Shown here: positions 17,371 to 57,553 of the stretch, in pieces
How the letters are laid out: each line of letters opens with the position of its first letter
How positions within the stretch are numbered: position 1 is the first letter of the stretch
Assembly (NCBI GenBank): GCA_963729605.1
Contig: CAVSNY010000006.1
Coordinates: 32,001-96,000, forward strand
DNA length: 64,000 nucleotides
Source: an uncultured Gammaproteobacteria bacterium
GTDB lineage: Bacteria; Pseudomonadota; Gammaproteobacteria; DRLM01
Direction: 5' to 3'
The notes under the pieces: generated by a model
Databases searched by the model: none
What the model saw: the letters and a program-made list of their open reading frames with translations, nothing else
What the model was told of the DNA's origin: nothing
Made by a program: the position numbers and the translations under genes

Positions 17371-17418
17371 GGTCCATTCCTCTATGCATCGCCGCATCTC
17401 TCACGTCATGATTCATCA

Positions 17419-18741
17419 CTATTTATCTTTTTCCATGACGCGAGACGCCCGCGAACGATAAACGGCGGCCGCGGCCCAATTTCCCAGCAATTCAGCCTGC
17501 GTGGCAAGGTGCACCAAGGCCTGGTAGTGGCGAGGATCCAAGTACACCGCTTTGCGAAACAATTCGCCGGCGGAAGAATCTTTTCCCTCCGCCTGTCTAA
17601 TCAAACCCAGTAAATAATAACCCTCCGCGGAAACACTGTTTCTGGCCAAGAACTTTTCACAAAACTCCGCCGCCTCCGTCAATTCGCCTTTATCCGCCAG
17701 CCTTCTCACTTCCTTCAAATCCGCATCGTCATCGTTATGGCTCGGCGATAATCTACCGGGGAAATGGCCCGGCGGCCTGGCGTTGTGGGCCGATCCCGCT
17801 TCCAGCGCCGATGTCTCGCCGGAAAAAACCTTTTTTTCCACGACATGGTTATTAGTCGGTTTTTGCTGAAGCGGCTTGGCGGAGGATTCGCGTTTTTTCA
17901 GCGGAGCACCGGCCGTGTCCGCCGACGGGACGGCTTCGTGATCGGCCGGCGATCTTTTACGGAAGGCGAAGGTTCCCGATTGCTTCATGGATAAGAAGAG
18001 GTCGTTAGGCAGCCTGGCACCCTCGGCATGACCGACGAATAACAAGCCATTTTTCGCCAGCACCCGATGCAATTTATCCACGGCCTCTTCTTGTTGGTCG
18101 CGCCTGAAATAAATCAGGACATTCCTGCAAAAAATCACATCGTACAGCTCCGAACTCGGCAGATATTTCGGGTTCAATAAATTCTCGTGCTGTAAATTAA
18201 CCATCTTTTTAATGGCATCGTTCAGCACGTAACCTTCCTCGGTCTTATTGAAATACCGGGAGCGGTAATTGCCTTCATCGCCCCTAAAAGAATTCGGACC
18301 GTAAACCGCGCGCCGCGCCCGATTAAGCGCGCGAACGCTGATGTCTACCGCATCGACCCGCACCGTCTCGGCGCTGAACCCCATGTCTTTTAACGCCATG
18401 GCAATCGAATAAGGTTCCTCGCCGGTCGCGCAAGGGATGCTTAATATTCTCAACACTTTTTCACGGGACGGAGGAAACCATTCGCGGCGCACCACTTCGG
18501 TCAACAAGCGAAAGGGATCCCGATCCCTGAAAAACCAGGTTTCCGGTACCGTGACGGCGTCGATCAATTCTTGGAGCTCAACCGGATCTTTTTTGACCTT
18601 GGCGAAATAATCCTCGGCCCGCTCCACGCCCACTTCATCCATGCGCTGGCGAACGATCCTCTGCACGGTGTTGTTGCCGATGGACTCGCTGTCGAGGCCC
18701 ATCGCTTCCAACAGAAGATTTTCTATAGCGCTGATATTCAT
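17419..18741 (-). CDS. wspC: CheR methyltransferase with C-terminal TPR, WspC
   Basis: VTVPETWFFRD, PCATGEEPYS, IFCRNVLIYF, TPR YYLLGL..RKAVYLDP. Confidence 0.9.
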   Translation of the reverse strand: MNISAIENLLLEAMGLDSESIGNNTVQRIVRQRMDEVGVERAEDYFAKVKKDPVELQELIDAVTVPETWFFRDRDPFRLLTEVVRREWFPPSREKVLRILSIPCATGEEPYSIAMALKDMGFSAETVRVDAVDISVRALNRARRAVYGPNSFRGDEGNYRSRYFNKTEEGYVLNDAIKKMVNLQHENLLNPKYLPSSELYDVIFCRNVLIYFRRDQQEEAVDKLHRVLAKNGLLFVGHAEGARLPNDLFLSMKQSGTFAFRKRSPADHEAVPSADTAGAPLKKRESSAKPLQQKPTNNHVVEKKVFSGETSALEAGSAHNARPPGHFPGRLSPSHNDDDADLKEVRRLADKGELTEAAEFCEKFLARNSVSAEGYYLLGLIRQAEGKDSSAGELFRKAVYLDPRHYQALVHLATQAELLGNWAAAAVYRSRASRVMEKDK

Positions 18742-19220
18742 CGCCCGGCCTCGGCCTGTATTTTTTCGTCTTCCAAGGGACTGAATAAGCTATCCCGCAA
18801 GTCGGCTGGCAAGAGTTTATCGAGGCGGATGCACTGAACCATGCCTTTTTCATCCATGGCCAATTCGCCGAGAAATTCGGCGCTCTGCGCCCCACGTCCC
18901 GAAGAGATGAAAGAGGATCGAGCGAATTTCGCGGTTTCCGTCACATGTTCGGCCAGCAGGCCCAGCATGTGCTGGCCGCCGCCGCCGTAGGGATAGTCAA
19001 CCACGATGATGCGGGTGCTGAGATGACGCCGCACCGTGTCGCCGCTGATCATTTTCGAGACATCGATGACCGGAACCGCCACACTGCGGTAATTGAACAA
19101 TCCCGCCACGTAATCGGGCGTTTTCGGCAGGCGTTTTAGATTAACGTGCGGTATGACTTCGATGACGTGCCTGACGTCCAACCCGAAGCGATCTTCCCCG
19201 ACGGTGAAGAGAAGCAACAT
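18738..19220 (-). CDS. wspB: CheW-domain protein WspB
   Basis: VAGLFNYRS..VPVID, STRIIVVDY, LGLLAE. Confidence 0.87.
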   Translation of the reverse strand: MLLLFTVGEDRFGLDVRHVIEVIPHVNLKRLPKTPDYVAGLFNYRSVAVPVIDVSKMISGDTVRRHLSTRIIVVDYPYGGGGQHMLGLLAEHVTETAKFARSSFISSGRGAQSAEFLGELAMDEKGMVQCIRLDKLLPADLRDSLFSPLEDEKIQAEAGR

Positions 19221-19244
19221 GATATTTACCTCGCAGCGGCGACA

Positions 19245-21302
19245 TTAAGCACTCGCGAACCACGACCCGGATTCATGCGTGCGTTTCTGCACCTTGAAGC
19301 GCGACACCCCGGTTTGCAGGCCATGGGCGGCGTCGTTGAGGCGCTCGATGGCGGAATTGGATTGCCGTATGGAATCCACCGTCTGTTGCGCGGCTTCGTT
19401 GAGCTGGATCATCGCCTGCTTGATCTGATCGGCGCCTTGCGACTGCGATTGCATGCCCTCATGCACGCTTTCAAAACGCGGCGTGAGGGCTTGCACTTGC
19501 TCGATGATTTGTACGAGTTGAGTACCGACCGACTCCACTTCCGCGACGCTGCGCCGCACCTCCTCCGAGAATTTCTCCACGCTCATCACCCCCGCGGTGA
19601 CCGCCGATTGCATCTCCTTCACCATCTGCTCGATGTCCCAGGTGGCCACCGCGGTCTGATCGGCCAAACGGCGAATCTCGGTGGCGACCACCGCGAAGCC
19701 TTGGCCATATTCGCCGGCTTTTTCAGCCTCGATCGCGGCATTGAGAGAAAGCAAGTTGGTCTGATCGGCCACCTTGGTGATGGTGGTGACCACGGTATTA
19801 ATGTTGCTGGCCTTTTCGTTGAGCACTTCGAGTTTGGAGGCGATCGAGGCGGATGCCTCCACCACTTGGTGCATGGTCGATTCCATCTTGTCGAGGCCCG
19901 CCTGGCCGTGACTGGCGGCGGTCGCGGTGGTTTCCGCCACCCGCGCCACTTCCTCCATGGTCCTGACCAGCTCTTTCGACGTGGCGGAAATTTCGGTGGA
20001 CGTCGCGACGATCTCGTTGACCGTGGCGGCCTGTTCGGCGGCGGTCGCCTCCTGTTGTTTGGCGGTGGCGGCGATTTCAGTGGCCGATGAAGTCACTTGG
20101 ATACCCGACTGCTGGACTTGATTGACCAGCCCGCCCAGGTTGTCGACCATTTTTTGTACACCGTTCGCCAATTTGCCGATGGTGTCTTCGCCGCGGATTT
20201 CCAAACGTCCCGTCAAATCGCCCTCCGCGGCACGGATCACCACGCCGAGTATGGTGTCCACCTTTTGCTGAAGATCATCCATCGCCCGGCGCCTGTCTTC
20301 AATCAGTTCGCGCAAATTGTCGATCATCTTCTGCAAGCCCTTGCCAAGCTTGCCGATCGCATCTTCGCCGGAAAAAGGGACCTTACTGGTCAAATCGCCC
20401 GACGCGGTTTTGTCCACCGCATCCAAAAGGATGTTGACCTTGTTCGCCAACTCCTCCGCAATCTGCCGTTCGCGTTCCTGGTGTTCGCGCTCCCGTTGAG
20501 TCGATGAATCGACATTATCCGCCATGGAGTTGAAGGCCATGGCGAGTTTGCCCAGCTCATCGTTGTTGTGGACCACCGCCCGCACACTGTTATTGCCGCT
20601 CGTGCGCGCGTTCAAGGTATCCATCAAGTTTTGCAGCGGGCGGGATATCCAGCCGCGGAACAGAAGATTGACGACCAACAAGCCGCCCATCAGCAACACT
20701 ACATTCGCGAGCGCGCCGACCCACAATTCCTTTTCAACGCCGGCGTCCATATCGGCTAAGGAATAGGTCAAACGGATAGCGCCGTTCACCGACCCCGAGG
20801 GGACTTGATGACATTGCAGGCAATTAACGCCGCGCGTATCGGCGGTGGCTCGAAAGGGCGTCATGACGGTGACCGTGCGCCCCTTTTCGTTCTTGCCCAC
20901 CACCAAGATGTCTTCCCCCATCAAGGCCCTTTGATCGAGATCGTCCATGGGCTGCTCTTCGGGGAAACCGACGCCGAATTGTGCTTTTACCGGTAAACCC
21001 CGAACGACTCTCGCCTCGAGGACATTGGTACGGCGCAGCATTTTTTCGCGCAGGATATTTCTCTGGTCCATAGTGCCGGTCAGCATCATGGTATTGAGGC
21101 TGTCGAAATACAATGTCGAGGTGTCTTTGATTTGCGTTTCCGCCAACAGAAGAATGGCTTCTTTTTGGCGGATACCGGAATAAATCGTCACGGAGCCAAC
21201 GACCAGTATGAAGATCATGGCCACGGTGAAATTGATTTTTGCGCGCACGGATAAACGATTGGCGAAGGGAAGCCGATTAACGATGGTTTGCATGGTATGC
21301 AT
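19245..21302 (-). CDS. wspA: Methyl-accepting chemotaxis protein (WspA-like) with periplasmic CxxCH domain and three HAMP domains
   Basis: TM, periplasmic domain with CLQCH, TM, three HAMP-like repeats; signalling domain [34 protein letters not shown]. Confidence 0.88.
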
Positions 21303-21458
21303 CCTTTTTCATTGCACCACCGAACAATCTGGTGAATGTAATGGCCTGACTAATATGTCATTTTAATAACGCCCCTTTTAGAATGGCCATCGAATCACTT
21401 CGCCGTTCCTTGCGGGACCTGACTGCAAACGGGCACACCTCACGTGAACCCATTGCTA

Positions 21459-21485
21459 TCAACGGCTAAGGGCATTAAAACTTTA
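21459..21485 (-). promoter_or_regulatory. Putative sigma28 (FliA) promoter of the wsp operon
   Basis: Minus strand TAAAGTTT-N11-GCCGTTGA versus consensus TAAAGTTT-N11-GCCGATAA. Confidence 0.65.
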
Positions 21486-21536
21486 ACCAGCGCCGCACAC
21501 ATTCCCTGCCGGACCCCTTTACCGACAAAACCAACC

Positions 21537-21561
21537 TTCGCCGCCAAAATTTGGCGACGAA
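21537..21561. promoter_or_regulatory. Palindromic candidate operator
   Basis: TTCGCCGCCAAA-A-TTTGGCGACGAA, 12-bp arms with one mismatch, in the divergent intergenic region. Confidence 0.4.
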
Positions 21562-21860
21562 ATTGACCGTCACAGGAAAGAAACACCATATTTTTATTGA
21601 CGTTACGGAGAAACCCTGTTAAAAATCCACCTTGCGCGGGAATATGACTATTAAAAATTTTTAGCTTTTATAAACACGCGCTCGGTTGGTACTTGGGTAG
21701 GGACATCGATTCCACAAATGACAGTGGTGCTCACATATTTCAGCACCGTTCGCGACCCTGACTTAGGGGCGCGGGTCTGGTTTCCCATTTCTCGGCAATT
21801 GTTCATCATAAATTTATATTGGTGCGGCAACGCATCGTCGGAGTGGCAAGGATGGCCGCC

Positions 21861-24404
21861 ATGAATGGGCTCAATAAAGACGTTATTGAGTTTCCCAAAC
21901 CCAAACCGCGCGCGCCGGAGCCGCGGCGACAAGCCCGCATTCTCATCGTCAACGACCAAGACGATATTCTTCACCTGTTATCGAAAATCCTGACCAAAGA
22001 AGGTCATTTTCAGATCAGCGAGGCCCGCGACGGCGGTGAAGCGATCCGCCGGCTCCGCGGAGAACCGATAGATCTGCTGATCACCGATATTCATATGCCC
22101 CGGTTGGATGGCTGGCGGCTGGCCCGCATGGTGCGTTCCGGTCTATTCAACTGTCCCGCCACCACGCCGATCATCGTGGCCTCGGCCACCTTCAGCGAAC
22201 GCATCGCCGAAACCACCGCCCGCGAATTCGAGGTCAATCGTTTCTTATCCCTGCCGCTGGCAGACCGCGGTGAATTGGTGCGTTCCGTAGAGACCCTCCT
22301 CGCCGACTCCAACCCCATGCTTAAAAAGCCTCGACTGCTGATCATCGAGGACGACCCGGATACCACGATACTTGCGGAACGGATGTTGCGCGGCCGCTTC
22401 GACATCGAAACGGTGGGGGACGGTGACGCGGGTCTGGCGTCGTGGCGTAAACAGCACCATGACCTGGTGTTGCTGGACGTCATGCTGCCCAAGATGGCGG
22501 GGCCGGAAGTGCTGCGCACGATACTGGCGGAAGACCCGCAGCAGACCATCATTATCATGACCGCCGACAGCAGCGCCGAACGTTGTGAATCGCTGATGCT
22601 GGAGGGCGCGGTCGATTTCGTGTCCAAACCATTTCACGCCAACCAATTGCGCCAAATTTGTGAAATCGCGGTACGGCGGGCCGACTGCCTGGTCAGCAAT
22701 CATCAGTTCTCGGAGCGCACCCGCGCCCTCAAGACCGCGCAAAGCCACTACCACAAAATCGTCGACGCCCATCAGCGCTTGCTGGACAATCTCAGCTCGG
22801 TGGTATTTGAACTCGACCCCGACGGCCGGCTGCGTTTTCTCAACCGTGCCTGGGAACAGCTCAGTCATTTCAAAACCCACGAGAGCATCGGCCGGTTTCT
22901 TTACGACTTTCTGGCGCCACTGGACCGCGGCCAATGCCGCAGCGTCATCCGCGCCTTGGCGCAAGGCCGTAAACAGCACCACGAACAGGAAGTCCGCCTG
23001 CTCAGTAAACGCGGTGAGACGGTGTGGACCGAAATCACCCTCAACGTCAAACCGCATCCGGACACGGGTATCGAAGCGATTTTCGGCCACCTTACCGACA
23101 TTACCGAGCGCAAATTGGCCATGGCCCAATTGGAGCATCTGGCCATCCACGATTCGCTGACCGGCTTATACAACCGCCGCTACTTCGAAATCGGTCTGGA
23201 ACATATGGCCGCCAGCAGCGCCCGCTCCGCGGGCTCCCACGCGCTGCTCTACATCGACCTCGACCACTTCCAAATAGTCAACGACGCGATAGGCCATCGC
23301 GAAGGCGACATGGTGCTCAAGGAAATCGCCACTTTATTATCCTCCCGCACCCGGGAGGCCGACTTGCTATGTCGGATCGGCGGCGATGAATTCGCGATCC
23401 TGCTCACCCACGCCGATGCCGAGCAAGCCACGGCCGCCGCCTACGGCCTCGTCGAAGTCATCAACAATTTCCGTTACCGCCACGAGGGGCTCGAAATCGC
23501 CTTGGGATGCAGCATCGGCATCAGCCTGATCGACGGCGGTCAACCGTCGGGCGCGGTCCATCTCATGCAAGCGGACAAGGCCAGTTTCTCGGCGAAAAAC
23601 CGCGGCCGCAATCTGGTCCATATCTACAATCCGGCCGACAAGGACAGCGACGAATTACGGCAGAGCATCGACTGGGCCCACCGGGTCCGGCAGGCCATCA
23701 ACGAGGATCGTTTGGAACTCTATGTCCAACCCATCCTCGAACTCGCCACCGGCAAGATCAATCATTACGAGGCGCTGTTGCGCCTGCGCACCCGCGAACC
23801 CGTCGACATCATCACGCCGGGCATTTTTATCCCCGCCGTGGAAAAGGCCGGGCAAATCCACATGCTCGACCGCTGGGTCATCAAACGCGCCATTCAAATG
23901 TTGTCCACTCAAAACCGGTTGTCCCAACTGGCGATCAACCTCTCCGGCCACGCCTTCGCCGATCCCGATCTACTCGGCTTCGTCCAAAACGAGTTGGATA
24001 GCCAGCGAGTGGACCCCAAGCGGATCATCTTCGAGATCACCGAAACCGCGAGCGTGGCCAATATCAATGAAACCCAGCGCATGATCAACCAGCTACAGAG
24101 CCTGGGTTGCCGCTTCGCCCTCGACGATTTCGGCACGGGCTTCTGTTCGTTCCATTACCTGCGGCATCTCCCTACCGACTTTCTGAAATTAGACGGTTCG
24201 TACATCAAAAACATCGCCGATAACGACCTCGACTTCGCCATGGTGCGTTCCATGAACGACATCGCCCACATCCTCGGCAAAAAAACCATTGCGGAATGTG
24301 TCGAAACACCGGCCGTCCTGCATCGTCTGCGAGAAATCGGCGTGGACTACGTTCAAGGACACGGCATAGGGCATGCCTTACCCCTGGAGTTTTACTCCGC
24401 TTAA
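21861..24404 (+). CDS. REC-REC-PAS-GGDEF-EAL c-di-GMP signalling protein
   Basis: Two receiver domains (LLITDIHMP; VLLDVMLP..SKPF), PAS ending DITERK, RIGGDEF with READ I-site, YEALLR and DDFGTG; start 21852 or 21861. Confidence 0.9.
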   Translation: MNGLNKDVIEFPKPKPRAPEPRRQARILIVNDQDDILHLLSKILTKEGHFQISEARDGGEAIRRLRGEPIDLLITDIHMPRLDGWRLARMVRSGLFNCPATTPIIVASATFSERIAETTAREFEVNRFLSLPLADRGELVRSVETLLADSNPMLKKPRLLIIEDDPDTTILAERMLRGRFDIETVGDGDAGLASWRKQHHDLVLLDVMLPKMAGPEVLRTILAEDPQQTIIIMTADSSAERCESLMLEGAVDFVSKPFHANQLRQICEIAVRRADCLVSNHQFSERTRALKTAQSHYHKIVDAHQRLLDNLSSVVFELDPDGRLRFLNRAWEQLSHFKTHESIGRFLYDFLAPLDRGQCRSVIRALAQGRKQHHEQEVRLLSKRGETVWTEITLNVKPHPDTGIEAIFGHLTDITERKLAMAQLEHLAIHDSLTGLYNRRYFEIGLEHMAASSARSAGSHALLYIDLDHFQIVNDAIGHREGDMVLKEIATLLSSRTREADLLCRIGGDEFAILLTHADAEQATAAAYGLVEVINNFRYRHEGLEIALGCSIGISLIDGGQPSGAVHLMQADKASFSAKNRGRNLVHIYNPADKDSDELRQSIDWAHRVRQAINEDRLELYVQPILELATGKINHYEALLRLRTREPVDIITPGIFIPAVEKAGQIHMLDRWVIKRAIQMLSTQNRLSQLAINLSGHAFADPDLLGFVQNELDSQRVDPKRIIFEITETASVANINETQRMINQLQSLGCRFALDDFGTGFCSFHYLRHLPTDFLKLDGSYIKNIADNDLDFAMVRSMNDIAHILGKKTIAECVETPAVLHRLREIGVDYVQGHGIGHALPLEFYSA

Positions 24405-24541
24405 AATCGTCGCGCCCGCTCATCCTGCGTGCAACGATAAACGGCGGACCGATCGACAATTCGCAATATTCACTCGATACAATTTGTTGCAAGCAATCCG
24501 ACAGTCTATTATTGTGTGTATCTGTATCCGGGAGAACGTTG

Positions 24542-26506
24542 ATGTCGTCTATCACCCCTAGCGATGCTCTTAATAAGAATAACGAATATCATGACACCTC
24601 CCGAGCACAGCCTTTCAGTGCCGCGGACCTGATACTTTATTACCTGGAACAACTCGACATCGATTTCGTGTTCGGCATCCCCGGCGGGAGCATCGAGCCT
24701 TTATATAATGCCTTGGCCCGCAGCCAACGCCGCGGTGGGCCCCGCCCGGTCGTGGCCCGCCACGAAACCGGCGCGGCCTTCATGGCCGACGGCTACGCCC
24801 GCGAGACCGGTAAGCTCGGCGTGTGTTGCGCCACCACCGGCCCCGGCGCCACCAATATGCTCACCGGCGTGGCCTCCGCCTACCAAGACCAAATCCCCCT
24901 TCTGGCGATCACCGCCCAAACGCCGCTTCGCACCTTTGGCCGCGGCGCGGTGCAAGAATCCAGCTGCACCGGCATCAACACCGTGGCCATGTATGAACAC
25001 TGTACCCGCTACAACACCCTGGTCTCGCACGTCGATCAGTTGGAGCGCAAATTGATCAGCGCCATCACCATCGCCATGCAGCCGCCTTGCGGTCCGGTGC
25101 ATTTGAGCATTCCGCTGGACGTACTCCGCGAACCGGTGAACATCCAACCCGGCCATAATCTCAAATCCCTGCTTTATCCCTCCTTTGCCGTGGATGACGA
25201 AGCAGTCGATCAGCTGCAGAATACCTTGCGCACGTCCCGCAATGCCGTATTCGTGTTGGGCGCCGGCGCGGGCAAGGCGGTGGGTACCATTCTTGAAATC
25301 GCCGTACTGCTCAATGCGCATGTCATTACCACTCCTCACGGCAAAGGCCTGATCAGCGCTTATCATCCCCAATACCGGGGCGTATATGGGCTGGCGGGCC
25401 ATCCCACCGCGCACGGTCTGCTCAAGGATCCCAGCGTGGACGTCGTGCTGGCGATCGGCACCGACCTGGACGAACAGGCGACCAACAGTTGGGACCACAG
25501 CGCCCTGATGGGTAAAAAAGTGGTGTTCATCGACTCCACGCCTCAGCATTTCTCCCGTTCGCCCATGGCGCGTCAACACATCAGCGGCAATCTGCGCAGC
25601 CTGTTCGAAAGACTGATCGGCCGTTTATACAGCAACCGCAAAGATCAGCAGGACGTGTTCTGGCAATTTTCCGAACATAATCGGCCGCGCAATTTTCCGG
25701 TCGTGCAATTCGACCGCCGCGCCAGCGACCGCCGCCACCTCACGCCTCGGCCGCATTTTTCGGAAGGCGTCACTCCGCTGCGCACCAAGGAAAACCGCCA
25801 AACGCTGGACCGGCGCCGCGACCTCGCCATCCCGCAGACCGCGCGCCGCTTCGCGTTAAAAGACGAGGACAAATATATCTCCAACGCCGTCCCCATCAAA
25901 CCGCAACGGCTGATGTACGATTTATCCCGGCTCTTCCCACCCACCACCCGTTTTCTCGCCGATATCGGCAATAGTTTCCTGTGGGTCATCCATTATCTGC
26001 ACCCCTACGACCGCCGAATCATCGGTGACCGCGCCCTCGCCTCCGGCCTGATCCGGCTGGGCATGGGCTTCGCTTCCATGGGTTGGGCCATCAGCGCCGC
26101 GGTGGGCACCGCGGTCGCCTGTCGCGGCAATCCGGTAGTCTGCATCGCCGGCGATGGCGCCGTGCTGATGAGCGGCCAGGAATTGAACACCGCGGTGCAG
26201 GAAAAACTGCCTATCATTTACGTCATCCTCAATGATGCCGCCTTCGGCACCGTCAAACATGGCCAACAAATGGCCGGCGCGGAACCCATCGCCTTTGAAT
26301 TGCCTCCCATCGATTTTGTCGCCTACGCCAAATCCATGGGGGCGGACGGTTACCGCATCGATTCGCCCGAGGACATGGCGGCTCTCGACATCGCCGCGCT
26401 CTGCAACCGCGCCGGCCCCACCGTACTCGATGTCCACATCGATCCGCATGAACGGCCGCCCTTGGAACAACGTATCAAAATGCTCAATGTCGATGCCAAC
26501 GCATAG
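24542..26506 (+). CDS. Thiamine-diphosphate-dependent enzyme (acetolactate-synthase-like fold) with Arg-rich insertion
   Basis: FGIPGG, RHETGAAFMADGYAR (catalytic Glu), TTGPGATN, GDGA..ELNT..VILND ThDP/Mg motif; GGAG RBS at 24531. Confidence 0.88.
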   Translation: MSSITPSDALNKNNEYHDTSRAQPFSAADLILYYLEQLDIDFVFGIPGGSIEPLYNALARSQRRGGPRPVVARHETGAAFMADGYARETGKLGVCCATTGPGATNMLTGVASAYQDQIPLLAITAQTPLRTFGRGAVQESSCTGINTVAMYEHCTRYNTLVSHVDQLERKLISAITIAMQPPCGPVHLSIPLDVLREPVNIQPGHNLKSLLYPSFAVDDEAVDQLQNTLRTSRNAVFVLGAGAGKAVGTILEIAVLLNAHVITTPHGKGLISAYHPQYRGVYGLAGHPTAHGLLKDPSVDVVLAIGTDLDEQATNSWDHSALMGKKVVFIDSTPQHFSRSPMARQHISGNLRSLFERLIGRLYSNRKDQQDVFWQFSEHNRPRNFPVVQFDRRASDRRHLTPRPHFSEGVTPLRTKENRQTLDRRRDLAIPQTARRFALKDEDKYISNAVPIKPQRLMYDLSRLFPPTTRFLADIGNSFLWVIHYLHPYDRRIIGDRALASGLIRLGMGFASMGWAISAAVGTAVACRGNPVVCIAGDGAVLMSGQELNTAVQEKLPIIYVILNDAAFGTVKHGQQMAGAEPIAFELPPIDFVAYAKSMGADGYRIDSPEDMAALDIAALCNRAGPTVLDVHIDPHERPPLEQRIKMLNVDANA

Positions 26507-26527
26507 TCCAAGCAGCGGATCGAGGTC

Positions 26528-27349
26528 ATGACAGACAAAAGCGATAAATTCAACACCCGGATTTGGGACGAAGTGCCCGAGGCCGACAACCCTTTCGCCG
26601 CCGCCGCCAGTTTTTGTCATGGTTATAATGTGTACGGCGACCTGCTCGGCAAAGCCGGTTGGATAGAATACCTCTATCTCTTGTTTCTCGGTGAACCTCC
26701 CTCACGACAGCAAGCCACGTTATTGGAAGGTATTGCCGTCGCCCTCGCCAATCCCGGCATACGGGATCATAGCGTTCATGCCGCAATGAACGGCGGGGTT
26801 GGCGGCTCCACCAGCGCCGCCTGTTTGATGGCGGCCCTCGCGGTCGGCGCGGGACAACTCGGCGGCGCACACGAAGTGTATCGGGCGATGGAATACTGGC
26901 ACAGCGGCGGCCTCGATTCCGCCGCCTGGGAAACCCTGCTGCGCAATCCACCGCAGGAAGAGCGGATCGATATCTGGCTGCCCATGGAACATCCCCCCGG
27001 GTTCGATCCTCACGGCGCCAGTTGCAGCACACCGGTCCGCCAAACCTTGGCCTACCTCAGCGGGTGTAGCCCCGGTCCGCATTTGGCTTGGCTGCAAGAA
27101 CAGCGGGAGAGACTCGAAAAAATCGCCGATGCCCCCCTTGCGATGAGCGGGGTGGCGGCCGCTACCTTCATGGATCTCTCCCTCAGCGCGGACCAAGGGG
27201 AGATGCTTTATTTACTGCTGCGTCTGCCCGGCGCCGCCGTTCACGCGTTAGAACAGAAGGAATATGGCTGGCGACGATTTCCGTTTTTTGCTGGCGCCAT
27301 AAAAATGAACAACAACCCTGACACGCGAAGCTCGGCTGCGATTTTGTAG
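26528..27349 (+). CDS. Citrate synthase / citryl-CoA lyase-fold protein A (non-canonical active site)
   Basis: HGYNVYGDLLG, YLLFLGEPPS, GGA, PGF, LLRLPG..HALEQ follow the citryl-CoA lyase pattern. Confidence 0.7.
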   Translation: MTDKSDKFNTRIWDEVPEADNPFAAAASFCHGYNVYGDLLGKAGWIEYLYLLFLGEPPSRQQATLLEGIAVALANPGIRDHSVHAAMNGGVGGSTSAACLMAALAVGAGQLGGAHEVYRAMEYWHSGGLDSAAWETLLRNPPQEERIDIWLPMEHPPGFDPHGASCSTPVRQTLAYLSGCSPGPHLAWLQEQRERLEKIADAPLAMSGVAAATFMDLSLSADQGEMLYLLLRLPGAAVHALEQKEYGWRRFPFFAGAIKMNNNPDTRSSAAIL

Positions 27350-27361
27350 GAGTATACGACA

Positions 27362-28198
27362 TTGCGTTCGCCATCCGCCCTGCTCAGCAATGAAAACAAC
27401 TGGCACACGACCGCCGGTTCGGCATTACCAGGACAACCCGTCATATATCGAGACAAAGATCTTTTTAAGGACCTCAAGGATTCCCGCTGGCTGCAGTTAT
27501 TAATGTATGGAATAACCGGCCGCTCTTTTGACGAGAAACAAATCAAGCTCCTTGAAGGCATCTGGGTTATATGCACGAGTTATCCCGAGGCCCGCTTATG
27601 GAATAACCGGATCGCGGCCCTGGCCGGCACCGTTAGGACCACGGGTTCTTTAGGTATTGCAGCCGCGATTGCCGCCTCCGAGGCAAGTATCTATGGCCAA
27701 AGACCGGCAATTAAAAGCATAGAATTCTTAATTCGCACCCAAGAAAACCTCGACAAGGGACATAATTTAAAAACCTTGATCACCCATGAGCTAAAAACGC
27801 AGCGTGTAATCCCTGGGTACGGACGCCCACTCATTGGTACCGATGAACGGATTCCCGTAATGATGTCTCTCGCCGAAGAGCTTGGCTATGCGAACGGGTC
27901 CTATGTGAAGCTCGCCTTTGACATAGAAAAGACTTTGCTTGATGGACGTTGGAGGCTTCACATGAACGCGGCGAGTTTGATCGCGGCCTTAGTGGCCGAC
28001 CAAGGCATCAAAGCACGAGAACATTACCTTTATATGATCCAATGTTTCACAGCAGGTATGCTTCCTTGTTATGTCGAAAGTGCGTCCCACCCTGAGGGTA
28101 CTTTTTTGCCAATCCGATGTAGCGGCATCAATTATATCGGGCCACAAAGACGGGCATGGACGAGCGCGGGCACTCAACACAATGCGTCAAAAATGTAA
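27362..28198 (+). CDS. Citrate synthase / citryl-CoA lyase-fold protein B (non-canonical active site)
   Basis: VIYRDKDL, ITGR, IPGYGRP..DER, HMN; TTG start with AGGAG RBS overlapping the upstream stop. Confidence 0.7.
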   Translation: MRSPSALLSNENNWHTTAGSALPGQPVIYRDKDLFKDLKDSRWLQLLMYGITGRSFDEKQIKLLEGIWVICTSYPEARLWNNRIAALAGTVRTTGSLGIAAAIAASEASIYGQRPAIKSIEFLIRTQENLDKGHNLKTLITHELKTQRVIPGYGRPLIGTDERIPVMMSLAEELGYANGSYVKLAFDIEKTLLDGRWRLHMNAASLIAALVADQGIKAREHYLYMIQCFTAGMLPCYVESASHPEGTFLPIRCSGINYIGPQRRAWTSAGTQHNASKM

Positions 28199-28200
28199 TT

Positions 28201-30279
28201 ATGAAAAATAGCACTTATAGAACTCCCGTGATTCTCAGCTTCATTTTTAATGCTTTCGGGACCGCCGCTGTAGCAGTAGAAGATGATTTTTCACTCATGT
28301 ATGGCGATACGGAGTTCGTCACCATCGCGACAGGGGTACAACAAACCATAGCCCACGCCCCCGCCGTAGCCTCGGTCATTTCAGCAGAAAGTATTAAGGA
28401 AATCGGCGCCAGAGATCTTGACGAAATCCTGGAAACCATTCCGGGACTACACGTAGCAAGATCAAATCGTTTATATAACCCTGTATACACGATACGGGGA
28501 ATATATTCCGAAACGAATCCACAGATCCTGATTCTTATCAACGGCATCCCCATCACCAACATCTTTGCCGGCGACCGCAGTCAAGTTTGGGGAGGGATGC
28601 CGGTCAATAATATCGCCCGCATTGAAATCATCCGCGGCCCGGGCTCGGCGGTTTATGGCGCGGACGCCTTTTCAGGCGTCATCAACATCATCACCAAAGA
28701 CGCGAATAATATCGATGGCACCGAAATCGGTGCGCGGGTCGGTTCGTTTGATACAAAAGAGACTTGGCTACAATACGGCGGCGAACACAACGGTTTAAGC
28801 ACCGCCTTCTCTTTTGAATATGGAGTGACCGACGGCCAGCGGGAAACTGTTCAAGCCGACGCTCAAACCGGCCTGGATGGCTTATTCGCAACGAGCGCCT
28901 CGCTGGCCCCCGGCCCAGTGAACTTGGGACGAAAATATTTGGATACCCGCGTTGACTTAAGCATCACCGCTTGGCGGCTGCGCCTGGGTTATCAAGGTCG
29001 GCGCGATGTGGAAACCGGGGCTGGCGTGGCGCAAGCGCTCGATCCCGTCGGCGACAATCAAAGCGATCGGTTCAACGCGGACCTCACCTACCGCTTTACG
29101 CGCGTGGAGAATTGGGACACCAGCATCGAACTGAGTTATTTCGACACCAGCGCCCGTTCCGAGCTGGTGTTGTTTCCACCCGGCGCCTTCGGCGGGGCGT
29201 TTCCGGAAGGGCTGATCGGCAATCCGAACGTCTATGAGCGGCATACCCGCTTTGGGATATCCAGCTTTTATACGGGCTGGGAGAAACACCGGATTCGTTT
29301 GGGCGCCGGTTACAATTTCAGCGATCTATACAAAGTTACAGAAAGCAGAAATTATTTTTTCGCGCCGGGCGGCATCCCCGTCCCCCTGGGTAGCGTCGTT
29401 GACGTTAGCGATTCAGCCGCCTTTGTGCGAGAGGAAGACCGCAAAATAACCTATCTATTCGTTCAAGATGAATGGATGTTCGCGCGGGATTGGAGTCTCA
29501 CCGCCGGAATAAGATACGACAATTATTCGGACTTCGGCGACACCATCAATCCGCGTGCGGCCATCGTCTGGCAAACGTCCTTCGACCTCACTAGCAAATT
29601 TTTGTACGGCCGCGCCTTTCGTGCGCCCTCGTTTGCCGAACTTTACAACATCAACAATCCTGTCGCGCTGGGCAACGCCAATCTCGAGCCGGAAACCATC
29701 GACACCATAGAACTCGCCTTCGATTATCAAATATCCGGCAAGGCGCGCACCGGATTAAATCTCTTTTATTACCAGATGCGAGACATCATTCGCCCCATCA
29801 ATGACCCCGCCCCCGCCACTACCGTAACGGCGCAAAACAGTGGACGCCAGTCCGGTTACGGGCTGGAATGGGAAGTGAACTGGAGTATCACCAACACTGT
29901 ACGTCTCATCGGCAATTATGCGCTGCAACGTTCGGAAGACGACAACACCGGCTCGGATTCCGGCAACGCGCCGCATCATAAAATTTATACCCGCGTCAAC
30001 TGGCGCCCGTTAAACAACTGGAATATCAGCCCGCAGATCACCTGGGTTGGCGAACGCCAGCGGGTCTCCGCCGACTCGCGGCCTCCGGTGGACGACTACC
30101 TCACCATCGATCTAACCGTTCGCCGCACCCAGGATATTAATAAGTTCGCGCTGGCCGGTTCGATCCGTAATCTGCTGGATGAAGATGGATACGAACCCAG
30201 CCTTAGCCCTGGTCAAATTCCCAATGATCTGCCCATGGCGGGACGAAATTTCTATGTCGAGGCACAATATTTTTTCTAA
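28201..30279 (+). CDS. TonB-dependent outer-membrane receptor
   Basis: Signal peptide, plug motifs (APAVASVI, L..IPGL, RIEIIRGPGSAVYGADAFSGVINIITK), barrel (LEPETI, NLLD), C-terminal Phe. Confidence 0.92.
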   Translation: MKNSTYRTPVILSFIFNAFGTAAVAVEDDFSLMYGDTEFVTIATGVQQTIAHAPAVASVISAESIKEIGARDLDEILETIPGLHVARSNRLYNPVYTIRGIYSETNPQILILINGIPITNIFAGDRSQVWGGMPVNNIARIEIIRGPGSAVYGADAFSGVINIITKDANNIDGTEIGARVGSFDTKETWLQYGGEHNGLSTAFSFEYGVTDGQRETVQADAQTGLDGLFATSASLAPGPVNLGRKYLDTRVDLSITAWRLRLGYQGRRDVETGAGVAQALDPVGDNQSDRFNADLTYRFTRVENWDTSIELSYFDTSARSELVLFPPGAFGGAFPEGLIGNPNVYERHTRFGISSFYTGWEKHRIRLGAGYNFSDLYKVTESRNYFFAPGGIPVPLGSVVDVSDSAAFVREEDRKITYLFVQDEWMFARDWSLTAGIRYDNYSDFGDTINPRAAIVWQTSFDLTSKFLYGRAFRAPSFAELYNINNPVALGNANLEPETIDTIELAFDYQISGKARTGLNLFYYQMRDIIRPINDPAPATTVTAQNSGRQSGYGLEWEVNWSITNTVRLIGNYALQRSEDDNTGSDSGNAPHHKIYTRVNWRPLNNWNISPQITWVGERQRVSADSRPPVDDYLTIDLTVRRTQDINKFALAGSIRNLLDEDGYEPSLSPGQIPNDLPMAGRNFYVEAQYFF

Positions 30280-30314
30280 GCCGCGCAACACGGACTAAGA
30301 AACATTTTTCCGAT

Positions 30315-31949
30315 TCATATCCGGCCCGCTTGATTTCCATCCACCGCGCGCGGCAGTAAACCTCCCGTCAGCAAAATACCTTTTACTGGGAGAGGTATCC
30401 TCACTGAAAAAACCGACCCCTGTTGGGGCACGCTTTTTACCGTGATGGTCGCCCCCAACAGATGACACAGTCTTTGGGTGATGCTCAGGCCCAACCCGGT
30501 CCCGCCATACTCGCGGGTCGTACTCATATCCGCCTGGCGGAATTCTTCGAAAATATGGGCCTGCTGATCTTCAGACATACCGATTCCGGTGTCGGAGACC
30601 ACGATCACCAGCAATTCTTTGGCGATACTCACCGATATTTCGATGTGGCCGCACTTGGTAAATTTGCTGGCATTGCTCAACAAATTCAGTAAAATTTGCC
30701 GAAGCTTCTGCGCGTCGATCAATACCATATCCTGCTCGCCTTCAACCCGCACCGAAAGTTGATTGTCGTTTTTCTTGACGAGCACCCGCACCGTATCCAC
30801 CGCCTCGGCGACCAACTCCCGTATGTCGGTTGCCTCAAGCCAAACATCCATCCGACCGGCTTCGATTTTCGCAAGATCCAAGATGGTGTTGATCATCACC
30901 AGCAGATGATTGGCGGCGCTATGCACCCGCCGCAGGTCGGTCACCACCTCGTCATTGCCTTCAATTTCCATCTCTTCGATCACCATCTCCGAATAACCGA
31001 TGATGGCATTGAGCGGGGTGCGCAGCTCATGGCTCATGTTCGCCAAGAATTCCGATTTGTGCCGACTGGCCAGCAGCGCCTCGTCGCGTGCCTCCACCAA
31101 TTCGCGGGTGCGCGAAGACACCAAGGCTTCCAGATTATCGTTTTGCTCGCGCAACTGCCGATCCCGCTCTTCGAGCGCGGCGATCATTTTATTGAAGACG
31201 CGCGCGATGGTTCTAACCTCGGCGGGACCTTCAATCAACGCACGGGAATGACCTTCGCCTTCTCCGGTTTTGCGCATCACCACCGCAAGGGCCTGCAGGG
31301 GCGAGGTGGCGCGGTTGACGATGCTGCGCAACAGCAAAAGCAACACTGCGGCGAAGACCAACGCAACGATGATGTTGTTTATGAAAATAGTCGCTTGAGT
31401 CTTGCGCAACTCGGCCTTGCTGACCGCGACATGTACGAAACCCAATTGTTCGACCCGCGGATCTTGCAGGTGAAATTGTGACTCTATCCCTTCTCCGCCC
31501 TCCGGCCGGGAATACACCGGCGCGAGAAAATGCAGAGATGAGCCGGTTTCCTCCATCAAGGATGCTTTATTAGGGGGGTCGGTCGCCGTCATTACCTCCA
31601 GCGCAGGCGCCCAATCCACCGTTTCTCCCTGTTTCAGTAAAAGGCTATGCTCCATATTATAAATAGAGACGTAGCGGACATTGGGAAAGGCCAGCGTCGC
31701 TTTGGCGGAATCGGCGGCATTCTCCTGAGAGGAAAGCAACAGCGCCAACACGCTTTGCGTCGCGAAATTATCGGTGATTTGCACGCCCTCCCGCACCAGC
31801 GATTCGCGCATATTCATGCTCTGCAAAACCGCGGTCGCCAGCGAGGCCAACAATGCCATGCAGGCGACACCCAGCGACACGGTGTATAAAAGTTGTTTGC
31901 GGAAACTCCACGACGGCGGCAATAGACGATCAAGGATATCCATGCTCAT
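30315..31949 (-). CDS. Membrane sensor histidine kinase (periplasmic domain, HAMP, HisKA, HATPase)
   Basis: Two TM segments, [38 protein letters not shown]; no receiver domain. Confidence 0.92.
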
Positions 31950-31952
31950 CTA

Positions 31953-32906
31953 TTATGGCGCCGGAAAAACAAGCGCGAACTCGCGCTGCTGTTCAATGGA
32001 AATGGTCAAACCCAGATGATCGGCGGTACGCTTGTTCAATGCGGCCTGTAAATCCGTCAAAGGCACGATGGATGAGGCCGCGCCATTGCCTCCCTCGCTC
32101 AAAACCCGTTGCGCCAGTTTCGCGATACTCACTCCCATCGCCTTATTATCGGGGAACAATGAGAACAGCGCACCCCTTTTGGCGTGGGCGGGATTGGAAG
32201 AAAATACGGCCAGATAATTATCCCAAGCCCCCTTCAGGATCAGAGGCAGTATGACTCGATCCTCCACGACCGTCGCATCCGGCAGCAGCCAAATGGCATC
32301 GCTTGATTGCCGACTACTGTTGGCCAGAATATCCCGGTATACCTTGGCGGCGCCCCGGCTGTCTTCCACGGGATACGTCAGCAACCTCATCCCATGACGC
32401 CTGGCGGCGGCATGCCCCAGACTCACCAGCCATTCGCTGTTGGCGCGGTTATAAACCACGCTCACATTTTTAATGTCGGGCAAGATCGCCTTGAGCCTGG
32501 CAAACATCATGTCGGGGTCGGCGGCCAAACTGATACCCGAAACACCTGCGGAAATATCCTCCGGCGCGATGATCAAAGCCCCTACCACGATCGGACGGTT
32601 TAATTGTAATTTTTGCGCGGCGGCAAAGCCGCCTCGTCCAAGCGCGATCACCGCTTCGGTATTTTGACGGAGTAAGATCTCTCGTAATAGATCGCGGTCG
32701 TAGTTGTCGCCGATTGCATGAAAATTAATCTCGCGGGTGGCGCCCTGCTTGATGCCCTCCATAATCGCGGTGACGACCTCGCGATAGGGGTCGCGAATAT
32801 CGGGATATAAAACGGCGATGGCCGCCTGCGAAACAGAGAATGGTAAACTTATTAACAAGCTTACACTTGCCAATACTGCCATCCTCACTAACGAAAAAAA
32901 GGCCAT
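31953..32906 (-). CDS. Periplasmic ABC-type substrate-binding-like protein (no permease nearby)
   Basis: Signal peptide (..FSVSQA), DAIWLLPD, GALFSL, LNKRTA..LGL typical of the ABC_sub_bind-like family; 3 bp from the kinase gene. Confidence 0.75.
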   Translation of the reverse strand: MAFFSLVRMAVLASVSLLISLPFSVSQAAIAVLYPDIRDPYREVVTAIMEGIKQGATREINFHAIGDNYDRDLLREILLRQNTEAVIALGRGGFAAAQKLQLNRPIVVGALIIAPEDISAGVSGISLAADPDMMFARLKAILPDIKNVSVVYNRANSEWLVSLGHAAARRHGMRLLTYPVEDSRGAAKVYRDILANSSRQSSDAIWLLPDATVVEDRVILPLILKGAWDNYLAVFSSNPAHAKRGALFSLFPDNKAMGVSIAKLAQRVLSEGGNGAASSIVPLTDLQAALNKRTADHLGLTISIEQQREFALVFPAP

Positions 32907-33062
32907 TCGCTATCTATAAATTCTGGGGCGGGATTATCAATCTTGGAAACGATCACCTCACTATTGAGGCAATGAGGATTGTAGGGCTTCGGAAGAATAA
33001 ACACAATTTTAAAAGTGGTAGCCCCCCAACAATTTTTTAATTGGAGATTGCGAGTGACTCGG

Positions 33063-33089
33063 AAAGGGGGCGGTGCGAATACCGCCCCC
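33063..33089 (-). terminator. Intrinsic terminator-like hairpin after small ORF
   Basis: 9-bp stem GGGGGCGGT/ACCGCCCCC followed by TTT on the minus strand. Confidence 0.55.
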
Positions 33090-33105
33090 GATTCCATCGC
33101 GACGA

Positions 33106-33285
33106 TTAATGCAGGGTCCTGCGCAGGCCATGTGTTTGATCGGGGACTTGGCCAGGCGTTTCGTCAATCAATATCCCCATACGGGGCTCTTGATGCTTGG
33201 CTTTACCATAAGTCGGATCTTCGGTGACTTCCAGCAACCTCAACTGCAAATCGTCGTCTTGACCACATTTACGCCGATTACTCAT
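33106..33285 (-). CDS. Small hypothetical protein (59 aa)
   Basis: MSNRRKCGQDD...GLRRTLH; GAGGAGG RBS, sigma28-like promoter upstream, terminator downstream. Confidence 0.6.
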   Translation of the reverse strand: MSNRRKCGQDDDLQLRLLEVTEDPTYGKAKHQEPRMGILIDETPGQVPDQTHGLRRTLH

Positions 33286-33361
33286 AACCGCCTCCTCATC
33301 GCCTTTGATCCGGAGCACCGCGGCAACTAGCCTCTTAAATACCCATCACCGCTCACTCTAG

Positions 33362-33389
33362 TTATCGACCCGGTCTCGATACGGCTTTA
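33362..33389 (-). promoter_or_regulatory. Putative sigma28 promoter
   Basis: Minus strand TAAA-N16-GTCGATAA (spacer one base longer than consensus). Confidence 0.5.
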
Positions 33390-33458
33390 ACGACAAAACG
33401 TCAATGCCATCACAGTTCGTCCTTAAAAAAATCATAAACTCTTGGCGGGTCGGCGATA

Positions 33459-33932
33459 TCAGGCCTCGCGGCAACCGTTTGAATCACTCGCGGCAAACCC
33501 GGGCGAAGACGCACCATTGGAGTGCGCTCTAAATCGATACGCCCTTTTCAAACAATGGGTCAACCATTCCCGCAAAAACTGATTGACACGACGTTTCTCA
33601 TAAGGCTGAAACATGTTCGGATTCGGGTAGGGATACAAAGGCTGAAAGCGTCCGGAGCTTTGGTAAGCCAGCACTTCCGCCACCCGCGCGTCTCGATAGA
33701 TGCGTATTTTCATGTTGAGCGCGGGGACGAAACGCTTATCGATGTTCATCGAATGGACAATACAAATCGTCGTGGTATAAGGACTGCGCTCCAACACCCT
33801 CACCTCGATACCGCTGATCGATTCGGCGACCAACACCGCCGCGCCGTCCACGCCTTCCAAGCCTGGCAATAACGCCATCAGCCTGGAGAAATTTTCCTCG
33901 TAGAGACCAAGCGTGTTCTGCATTACATACAT
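33459..33932 (-). CDS. DUF1249 (YqiB-like) protein
   Basis: LYEENFSRL, RSPYTT, IRIYRDARVAEV, YPYPNP..EK..VNQFL.EWL..CL; start uncertain. Confidence 0.8.
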   Translation of the reverse strand: MYVMQNTLGLYEENFSRLMALLPGLEGVDGAAVLVAESISGIEVRVLERSPYTTTICIVHSMNIDKRFVPALNMKIRIYRDARVAEVLAYQSSGRFQPLYPYPNPNMFQPYEKRRVNQFLREWLTHCLKRAYRFRAHSNGASSPGFAASDSNGCREA

Positions 33933-42359: not shown

Positions 42360-42768
42360 GATCTCTCCTTTACTCACGACTGGCATAACATAGTTATTGA
42401 GAAGCAGTCATCGCCAAGCTATGACTCGAATTCGAGATCTAACTTTCCCTTCCAACCTCCCTAGTTTGGGGTGGCCGCGGCTCATTAGTGTAGCTGAGTG
42501 ATTTTCACAAGGCGAGTAACCGGATTGTTTGGCGACGGCCGGCAAAATCCCGTGATTCAGACATCGCAATAACCGTCAATCCGCCAGCCACGCGCACGAC
42601 GGAAGGGGATCATTCAAAATAGTTTGACAGCAAGAGCGGCTACTGAAAACTGTATTATATATATAGCAATTCCGCTGCGCGGAACCGAATCCGCCGTCCC
42701 GCTGTAGTGATTGACAGCCCATGCAATAGCGATGAGCATATCCGTACGCCAAACTCACCGCCTCATAC

Positions 42769-57543: not shown

Positions 57544-57553
57544 GGGCAACTCC

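Follow-up and report, generated by a model that had tools for sequence, protein, structure and literature searches.

The locus described here occupies positions 21861–32906 of a 64,000-nucleotide (nt) window, the whole stretch of DNA analyzed, which was taken from contig CAVSNY010000006.1 of an uncultured gammaproteobacterium of the DRLM01 lineage. It comprises seven genes (Table 1), encoding a response regulator with cyclic di-GMP (c-di-GMP) output domains, a thiamine diphosphate (ThDP) enzyme, two citryl-CoA lyase (CCL)-fold proteins termed CSa and CSb, a TonB-dependent receptor (TBDR), a sensor histidine kinase (HK), and a solute-binding protein (SBP). The domains, coordinates, and spacing that a preliminary description of this DNA had assigned to the seven genes all agree with the list of open reading frames (ORFs) and with Pfam. 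The ThDP, CSa, CSb, and TBDR genes follow each other with gaps of 21, 12, and 2 nt, and a 137-nt gap separates the regulator gene from the ThDP gene. The kinase and SBP genes are spaced by 3 nt, and the stop codons of the TBDR and kinase genes are convergent, 35 nt apart. The start of the ThDP gene at 24542 is backed by a homologue alignment that is full length from residue 1 and by a GGGAGA stretch upstream. Among the seven proteins, only the TBDR and the SBP carry signal peptides. Rfam gave no match at E ≤ 1 within 21000–33600, and promoter and terminator scans performed at chance (12 versus 8.9 expected and 13 versus 14.4 expected, respectively).

Table 1. Genes of the locus, with positions in the window and the basis of each assignment
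Product	Position	Strand	Basis
REC-REC-PAS-GGDEF-EAL response regulator	21861..24404	+	Pfam, translation
Three-domain ThDP enzyme, acetolactate-synthase superfamily, putative carboligase	24542..26506	+	Pfam TPP_enzyme_N/M/C
CSa, CCL-fold protein	26528..27349	+	Structure prediction and fold search; without Pfam match
CSb, CCL-fold protein	27362..28198	+	Pfam Citrate_synt borderline; fold search
TBDR, outer-membrane receptor with Plug and beta-barrel	28201..30279	+	Pfam
Sensor HK, HAMP-HisKA-HATPase without receiver	30315..31949	-	Pfam, translation
Periplasmic PF04392 (ABC_sub_bind) SBP	31953..32906	-	Pfam 1.5e-16

The recurrence of these genes was evaluated by scanning one genome per species with an alignment of CSb relatives, which gave 453 loci encoding a relative. 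The best-scoring 80, with up to 10 kb of flanking DNA on each side, form the basis of all counts for the numbered loci (L) below. The ORFs of the 80 loci were searched with the seven window proteins, all called genes were clustered into families, and frequencies were counted only over loci with enough flanking DNA. CSa is found in 73/73 loci with at least 900 nt upstream, the ThDP enzyme in 62 of the 64 with at least 3 kb upstream, and the TBDR in 58 of the 64 with at least 2.3 kb downstream; the SBP and the sensor are present in 50/57 and 46/52 sufficiently long loci, respectively. All six core genes (ThDP, CSa, CSb, TBDR, SBP, and sensor) occur together in 40 of 46 sufficiently long loci, so that the co-occurrence of enzyme and sensing genes across genomes, on which the preliminary description had staked its proposal, is borne out. 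These six families are widely common, and the next commonest family is found in 10 of the 80 loci. The order ThDP-CSa-CSb-TBDR-SBP-sensor on one strand is observed in 35 of the 41 loci in which all six genes were called. The remaining six include four with an inverted sensor/SBP pair like that of the window, one that is otherwise rearranged, and one with an extra TBDR/SBP/sensor triad, and the linkage persists through three rearranged layouts. Because the six genes stay together across several taxonomic orders and through rearrangements, chance linkage is contradicted; we read the seven-gene region as one conserved functional module.

The hosts, as labeled, are mostly Gammaproteobacteria (Methylococcaceae, Chromatiales, Thiotrichales, and Cycloclasticus), joined by Gallionella/Nitrosomonadales and Noviherbaspirillum; other labels are single records. 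The module is thus found in many Proteobacteria of environmental origin, and homologues occur in Nitrosococcus oceani ATCC 19707 (Noc_1268) and in N. watsonii. The six sufficiently long loci without the full set are L002, L008, L022, L037, and L056, described below, and L070, whose ThDP gene is in pieces. A plasmid copy of CSb was searched for and not found. No literature on the cluster was found, including by the locus tags Noc_1266 to Noc_1271, in a search whose coverage stops short of subscription journals.

The ThDP enzyme adopts the three-domain ThDP fold (Pfam N, M, and C domains) with the catalytic Glu, and the alignment contains both the catalytic HE (HETGAAF) and the cofactor motif GDGAVLMSG...ILND. 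All 25 NCBIfam equivalogs listed for the protein score below their cut-offs, the best reaching 295.6 bits versus 509, and the ScyA-related model, at 247.8 bits, is far under its cut-off of 1000. As the preliminary description had noted for ilvH and ilvC, the companion genes of acetolactate metabolism (ilvN/H, ilvC, and alsD) are absent at 21.8–36.2 kb and from the conserved families of the loci. An acetohydroxyacid or acetolactate synthase of branched-chain amino-acid or acetoin metabolism was rejected on the basis of the sub-cut-off scores and the missing companion genes. The closest solved chains are BbmA (7.1e-87) and CsmA (9.7e-79) (PDB 8x3x and 8x3z), which have motifs in common with the window enzyme, including TNSWD in the middle domain. 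The function of BbmA and CsmA was not found in the literature, and their chemistry is not used as evidence here. The window protein is assigned as a putative carboligase. An Arg-rich segment of ~60 residues is observed between the middle and C-terminal domains (approximately residues 356–451); it is gapped against P0130, a relative described below, and the stretches matched to BbmA skip query residues 342–451.

CSa has no Pfam match, and CSb matches Citrate_synt at a borderline 28.0 bits versus a cut-off of 27; in NCBIfam, the citryl-CoA lyase model gives 49.9 bits for CSa and 41.1 for CSb, both under the cut-off of 245. Structures were predicted, with predicted local distance difference test (pLDDT) values of 85.2 for CSa and 86.6 for CSb. 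The best match of a fold search is the citryl-CoA lyase 6hxp for both CSb (E 2.3e-10, template modeling (TM) scores 0.76/0.82) and CSa (E 6.8e-08, TM 0.65/0.69), and the next matches are the CCL modules of ATP-citrate lyase (ACLY) and then citrate synthases. The match to 6hxp and the ACLY CCL module extends over the whole ~260–280 residues of each protein at 13–20% identity. On these models, the citrate-synthase large-domain (CCL) fold is confirmed for both CSa and CSb. Judged by profile comparison (hhalign probability 93.5%, 16% identity), the two are distant paralogues.

The textbook catalytic motifs of citrate synthase, H-x-D-H, G-x-G-H, and N-V-D, were mapped onto CSa and CSb through the 6hxp alignments. 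At the position that, in our own reading of these alignments, is equivalent to the catalytic Asp of the N-V-D motif, Asp is found in 0/59 CSb sequences (A, T, G, S, or V instead) and in 0/54 CSa sequences (T, S, P, or another residue instead). This is the Asp that is mutated in the ACLY entries D1026A and D541A. In addition, the His of G-Y-G-H is replaced by Arg in 59/59 CSb proteins (G-Y/F-G-R-P), and the first catalytic His is missing from CSb, while just 36 of 54 CSa proteins retain it. Because the catalytic Asp and His are missing, CSa and CSb are not citrate synthases, and canonical activity as either citrate synthase or citryl-CoA lyase was rejected on these residues. The two citrate-synthase-fold genes of the preliminary description thus stand as far as the fold is concerned, but they encode stand-alone citryl-CoA-lyase-type modules without catalytic residues. 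Other residues of the fold are strictly maintained. CSb retains D-E-R, including the DxR arginine of 6hxp and ACLY, with R163 in 59/59 sequences; CSa keeps the RxxG...H..EQ helix and has H155, G158, F159, P161, R232, H239, E242, and Q243 as invariant residues, with R232 in 54/54. Many invariant polar residues are present in both proteins, and therefore some site is under selection.

CSa and CSb also differ from citryl-CoA lyase in forming a conserved heterologous pair without a citryl-CoA synthetase partner: no citryl-CoA-supplying enzyme (citryl-CoA synthetase or ATP-grasp-CoA ligase) is found among the families common to the 80 loci or at 21.8–36.2 kb. The CSa family is small: at E ≤ 0.001, a set of 1.84 billion contains 327 representatives. 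Protein-atlas look-ups added nothing beyond the citrate-synthase label. A natural ThDP-CSa fusion is represented by a single protein, P0130 (885 amino acids (aa)), whose ThDP part shares 41% identity with the window enzyme and which could be an assembly or gene-calling artefact. Tandem two-module CSb-like proteins are encoded at L002:3-1523 and L002:6244-8058 in a metagenome-assembled genome of Nannocystis, with no TBDR, SBP, or sensor nearby. The ThDP-CSa fusion and the tandem CSb-like modules suggest that the ThDP enzyme, CSa, and CSb work as a complex. Longer fused CSb forms were not found at E ≤ 1e-20, a negative that is weak evidence.

Between lineages, the cluster contains different inserted genes for tailoring enzymes, and the sites of insertion vary. 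Small-molecule O-methyltransferase family genes are observed in 10 loci and short-chain dehydrogenase/reductase (SDR) family genes in six, five of them within the cluster (Pfam was checked for two of each family). A sulfotransferase is encoded in L059, L072, and L077, accompanied in L072 by an adenosine phosphosulfate (APS) kinase, and a carbamoyltransferase in L003 and L063. The other genes inserted in the cluster are mobile or unrelated. By family assignment, all four types of tailoring enzyme act on hydroxyl or keto groups, a pattern of biosynthetic clusters with lineage-specific products. Since the inserted genes are of this hydroxyl- and keto-decorating type, biosynthesis is favored over catabolism, in line with the biosynthetic role proposed in the preliminary description. 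The latter had also reported no tricarboxylic acid (TCA) cycle or catabolic gene, and none is conserved nearby among the families common to the 80 loci. Nor is an inner-membrane transporter able to supply a catabolic route found at 21.8–36.2 kb or among the conserved families; specifically, the absence of an ABC permease or ATPase holds both for the genes at 21.8–36.2 kb, by Pfam, and for the families common to more than 10 of the 80 loci.

The sensing half of the module begins with the TBDR, a protein of 692 aa with a signal peptide, a Plug domain at residues 52–160, and a barrel (Pfam), which reaches no NCBIfam subfamily cut-off. The Plug follows directly after the signal peptide, such that the N-terminal signaling extension of a FecA/FpvA-type transducer is absent from the window receptor, and no sigma/anti-sigma family is conserved in the 80 loci. 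Two TonB receptor genes in tandem are observed in L018, L031, and L054, and L021 carries a second TBDR/SBP/sensor triad beside the first (L021:16000-20776, minus strand) with no further set of enzyme genes; both arrangements may provide additional channels for variant ligands. The signal peptide of the SBP ends with SQA at residue 28, and the solved relatives of the protein are 3lkv and 3lft. Solved PF04392 proteins bind L-Trp, L-Tyr, and L-Phe (PMC10443332, Table 1).

The sensor kinase of the window contains a transmembrane segment, a periplasmic sCache_4 domain (approximately residues 47–185), a second transmembrane segment, and the HAMP, HisKA, and HATPase domains, with no receiver or Hpt domain. 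Its first 215 residues match 53 proteins of the loci (E 6e-14 to 1e-130), all of which are SBP-adjacent sensors, whatever their output; sCache_4 was scored in 41 of the 53. The SBP and sensor genes are adjacent and co-directional in 49 of the 51 loci that hold both, with a median gap of 12.5 nt. In the 80 loci, this input domain is confined to the sensors beside the SBP. In addition, pairwise identities of the SBP and of the sensor domain are correlated across 30 loci with a Spearman coefficient of 0.70, as compared with 0.36–0.41 for other pairs of cluster proteins, all of these values being inflated by shared ancestry; 0/999 label permutations reached the observed correlation. At the sequence level, the excess correlation fits direct contact between the SBP and the sensor.

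Downstream of the shared input domain, the sensors are variable. Of the 44 sensors that are complete, with no truncation at the end of a contig, 25 are HK-REC(n)-GGDEF-EAL in one chain, one is an HK-REC(n)-GGDEF chain broken before the EAL domain, five couple the sensor domain directly to GGDEF-EAL, seven are short kinases like that of the window, five are hybrid HK-REC proteins, and one is fragmentary. Thus, a GGDEF(-EAL) output is in the same chain as the sensor in 31/44, with a fused kinase before it in 26. Pfam analysis of seven sensors revealed four with the architecture HAMP-HisKA-HATPase-REC-(REC)-Hpt-REC-GGDEF-EAL (~1500–1700 residues), one HAMP-PAS-GGDEF-EAL protein (~830 residues, from a Gallionella locus), one short kinase, and one hybrid HK-REC-Hpt protein. 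In the window regulator, REC2 has the canonical DD/D/T/K residues, the GGDEF motif is intact and has an RxxD site 5 residues before it, and the EAL motif and DDFGTG are also intact. By comparison with these relatives, the split kinase and regulator of the window are the fission form of a protein that is fused in most of them. Because most relatives fuse the kinase to REC-GGDEF(-EAL), phosphotransfer from kinase to regulator, the step postulated in the preliminary description, is supported; this fission relationship is the best evidence at hand for the step. The five direct sensor-GGDEF-EAL proteins further connect the input domain to this output. In a CSb tree, the window, L001, L004, and L011 form a short-kinase group (SH-aLRT, an approximate likelihood-ratio support, of 84) nested among fused types, and short kinases appear at no fewer than four places; the tree is unrooted, and the direction of change is tentative.

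L001, L004, and L023 likewise have a REC-REC-PAS-GGDEF-EAL gene before the ThDP gene, and L054 has a PAS-GGDEF-EAL gene without REC in this position. Other outputs are also observed. Outside the clade of the window, MerR-HTH-REC regulators are encoded in the short-kinase loci L003 (L003:6421-7023) and L029 (L029:7092-7733), which, as read from their domains, are a transcriptional output variant of the module; in L003, a REC-HisKA-HATPase protein (L003:18444-19547) follows the kinase. In L049, the hybrid kinase is preceded by a REC-PP2C gene, and family clustering places the same gene in L030, L038, and L073. The c-di-GMP output anticipated in the preliminary description is therefore the commonest output of the module but not the sole one, since 12 of the 44 sensors are kinases without GGDEF.

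The closest known logic is that of ScrABC, and also that of PruA-PruR-DcpA. None of the component families of the window is shared with ScrABC, PruA-PruR-DcpA, or Lpl0330/Lpl0329, and none of these systems includes a TonB receptor. In Vibrio parahaemolyticus ScrABC, as described in PMC4488946 and PMC8050422 (Table 1), an enzyme of the cluster makes the extracellular S-signal and a periplasmic SBP relays it to a membrane GGDEF-EAL protein, which alternates between making and degrading c-di-GMP. Synthase, SBP, and membrane GGDEF-EAL protein are encoded together there, as here, in architecture only, as the families differ. ScrA is a pyridoxal phosphate (PLP)-type enzyme in place of the ThDP enzyme and two CCL-fold proteins, ScrB belongs to SBP_bac_3 rather than PF04392, and ScrC has a dCache-like domain rather than sCache_4. 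Furthermore, ScrABC has neither TonB receptor nor phosphorelay, whereas the window cluster has a receptor and a kinase. Direct coupling as in ScrABC is visualized in the five loci with an SBP and a HAMP-PAS-GGDEF-EAL type sensor, and in 26 a kinase is fused between. The main text of a 2021 review of signaling binding proteins (PMC8050422) contains 0 occurrences of PF04392 and gives ScrB-ScrC and NspS-MbaA as its GGDEF-EAL cases of binding-protein signaling.

In Agrobacterium tumefaciens, a self-made pterin and a binding protein set the dominant activity of a dual GGDEF-EAL enzyme (PruA-PruR-DcpA; PMC4488946). Similar to the logic proposed for the window, PruR is encoded next to the dual enzyme; the differences are that the gene for the synthesizing enzyme is not linked to the pair, that the fold of the binding protein is another one, and that there is no receptor and no kinase. 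A precedent for the step from kinase to REC-GGDEF-EAL protein is found in Legionella pneumophila, in which, as described in bioRxiv 10.1101/604611, the receiver-less HK Lpl0330 (Lpg0278) phosphorylates the bifunctional REC-GGDEF-EAL enzyme Lpl0329 (Lpg0277) and cyclase activity changes. The upstream partner there, Lpg0279, is a FIST-domain protein and not a periplasmic binding protein, and neither enzymes nor a receptor are part of the system (same source). The window kinase also aligns with BarA over residues 31–523, which include the first transmembrane segment, the ATPase domain, and all that lies between (242.2 bits, under the cut-off of 890). The sCache_4 periplasmic domain is common to both, and relatives of the window kinase keep the REC-Hpt tail of BarA/GacS. 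Unlike BarA/GacS, the window kinase has lost REC and Hpt, most of its relatives add REC-GGDEF-EAL, and sensors of this type are always paired with a PF04392 SBP.

The gene content and linkage, the folds, the lost catalytic residues, the shared input domain, the kinase-GGDEF-EAL fusions, and the export signals lead us to a reading that is, on balance, probable: a module that makes a molecule, re-imports it, and senses it, usually with c-di-GMP as output. Three cytoplasmic proteins, the carboligase-type ThDP enzyme and a probable CSa/CSb heteromer, would build a small hydroxylated metabolite, and in some lineages the product would be further O-methylated, O-sulfated, O-carbamoylated, or keto-reduced. 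The released compound, or a complex of it, would return to the periplasm by active transport through the TBDR that the cluster itself encodes and be bound there by the PF04392 SBP, which, once loaded, would dock on the sCache_4 domain of the BarA-like sensor. The window version of this sensor consists of the kinase alone and would phosphorylate the REC-REC-PAS-GGDEF-EAL protein, whose gene lies beyond the enzyme genes, and so shift the balance between synthesis and breakdown of c-di-GMP.

Several observations weigh against this scheme of synthesis, re-import, and sensing. The cluster encodes neither an exporter nor an inner-membrane importer, and the dependence on a TonB receptor argues that the molecule is not a freely diffusible autoinducer; a metal chelate or scarce metabolite fits as well as a diffusible quorum-sensing-type signal does. 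The ligand of the SBP could be a common metabolite, because solved members of its family bind ordinary amino acids, and the shared ancestry behind the identity correlations tempers the case for contact with the sensor. With their catalytic positions lost, CSa and CSb may be non-catalytic partners or may carry out unknown chemistry. Some loci contain the enzymes with no TBDR, SBP, or sensor, either within 10 kb (L002, whose ThDP gene is also low-scoring, L008, and L056) or over ~8.5 kb downstream (L040), and L022 and L037 have no SBP or sensor. The enzymes can thus stand alone, or the sensors of these loci lie elsewhere; no recurring neighbor partner was seen in the enzyme-only loci L002, L008, L037, L040, and L056. 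The sensors without GGDEF output and the short-kinase relative L011, which has no adjacent REC-GGDEF-EAL gene, do not conform to the c-di-GMP relay, and all counts are restricted to the best-scoring 80 of 453 loci and anchored on CSb.

The dedicated receptor, a core member of the module, would equally suit the main alternative, a metallophore or scarce-nutrient circuit, in which the enzymes produce a small hydroxy-carboxylate or enediol-type chelator, the TBDR imports its metal complex, the SBP and sensor register that complex in the periplasm, and c-di-GMP, and with it lifestyle, follows metal supply and not cell density. Arginines of carboxylate-binding type are kept throughout (CSb R163 and CSa R232), and the labeled hosts are largely lithotrophs and methanotrophs (Gallionella, Methylococcaceae, and Chromatiales), organisms with a high metal demand. 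Moreover, sensing of an imported ferric siderophore in the periplasm by a two-component kinase is known from PfeS/PfeR with PfeA. We nevertheless regard such a circuit as rather unlikely, as the conserved locus families include no inner-membrane uptake system, reductase, esterase, nonribosomal peptide synthetase (NRPS), or NRPS-independent siderophore (NIS) synthetase, the output is mostly c-di-GMP and not transcription of uptake genes, and hydroxyls that are O-methylated, sulfated, or carbamoylated would tend to be lost as metal ligands.

The tailoring genes bear also on the improbable case that the TBDR, SBP, and sensor perceive a foreign compound and that the cytoplasmic proteins convert or degrade that or a related metabolite in place of making the ligand. 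Inserted decorating enzymes are typical of biosynthesis, not catabolism, and the nearest relatives of the ThDP enzyme are carboligase-type synthases; catabolic or TCA genes are not conserved nearby, and neither the window region nor the conserved families provide an inner-membrane transporter to carry a substrate to the cytoplasmic enzymes. The second triad of L021 and the tandem receptors would suit several outside ligands, and SBP-sensor pairs often sense nutrients (PMC8050422, Tables 1 and 3). It is very improbable that the regulator, the enzyme operon with its receptor, and the SBP/kinase pair are three independent units that happen to be neighbors. In the window alone, such a view could point to the two strands, the gap before the ThDP gene, and the promoter and terminator scans at chance level, but it is opposed by the retention of the six core genes across rearranged loci and by a sensor input domain that is exclusive to them.

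A more specific form of the make, re-import, and sense interpretation is possible, although we advance it tentatively: the module may represent an unrecognized class of self-signaling, in which a ThDP carboligase and a repurposed CCL-fold heteromer make molecules that are decorated by lineage, re-imported through a private TonB channel, and read out by PF04392 and sCache_4 to drive c-di-GMP. If so, methanotrophs, sulfur and iron oxidizers, and their relatives would possess an energy-dependent "autoinducer" channel of high affinity, and the enzymology would be new at either end of it. The module would then supply a signaling molecule and its receptor chain for drivers of methane, sulfur, iron, and nitrogen turnover, bacteria whose cell-cell or metal-linked signaling is little known. 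It would also give the small, sharply delimited CSa family, a citrate-synthase fold without catalytic residues, its first function and PF04392 binding proteins their first role in signal perception, and would place a TonB receptor upstream of a periplasmic c-di-GMP sensor. The varied tailoring genes and outputs (c-di-GMP, MerR-type, and PP2C partner-switching) form a natural series on the diversification of signal channels.

Adjacent to the module, a complete wsp-like operon is located upstream on the minus strand (11527–21302) and encodes MCP, CheW, CheR-TPR, CheW, CheA-REC, CheB, and REC-GGDEF proteins. The wsp neighborhood to which the preliminary description drew attention is present in the window but recurs in only 5/80 loci (L001, L004, L022, L023, and L054). 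With this scarce company and the location on the opposite strand, membership of the cluster in a wspA-F/wspR operon was rejected. In L011, cytochrome-c-assembly and CNNM/CBS genes (L011:3462-5666) are followed by two short unassigned ORFs (96 and 217 aa) and then by the ThDP gene, and the same cytochrome-c-assembly and CNNM/CBS genes are found in the window at 9219–11500, upstream of the wsp operon. The gene order in L011 and the window suggests that the wsp operon and the REC-GGDEF-EAL gene were gained or lost, by insertion or deletion, between these relatives. A second chemosensory cluster, CheR-CheD-CheB-MCP-small protein-REC/PP2C/HATPase_c_2, is located upstream of the ThDP gene in another clade (L003, L013, L030, L038, L049, and L073).

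Farther downstream in the window, 14 kb from the cluster, an MFS_3 "transmembrane secretion effector" transporter (631 bits) is encoded at 46713–48329 on the plus strand. It belongs to the family of the enterobactin exporter EntS. This transporter is the sole exporter candidate seen in the window and is unlinked in other loci. Further signaling genes, at 40785–42386 (minus strand), 48509–50551 (plus strand), and 53058–54704 (minus strand), comprise a PAS-HisKA-HATPase-REC kinase, a REC-PAS-PAS-kinase, and a PAS-GGDEF-EAL protein. Finally, the minus-strand genes at 54880–62779 resemble a cluster for assimilatory nitrate/nitrite reduction together with the supply of cofactor. They encode a BFD-domain molybdopterin oxidoreductase, a small Rieske protein, a large protein of the NAD(P)H nitrite-reductase type, and MobA-like and MoCF biosynthesis proteins.

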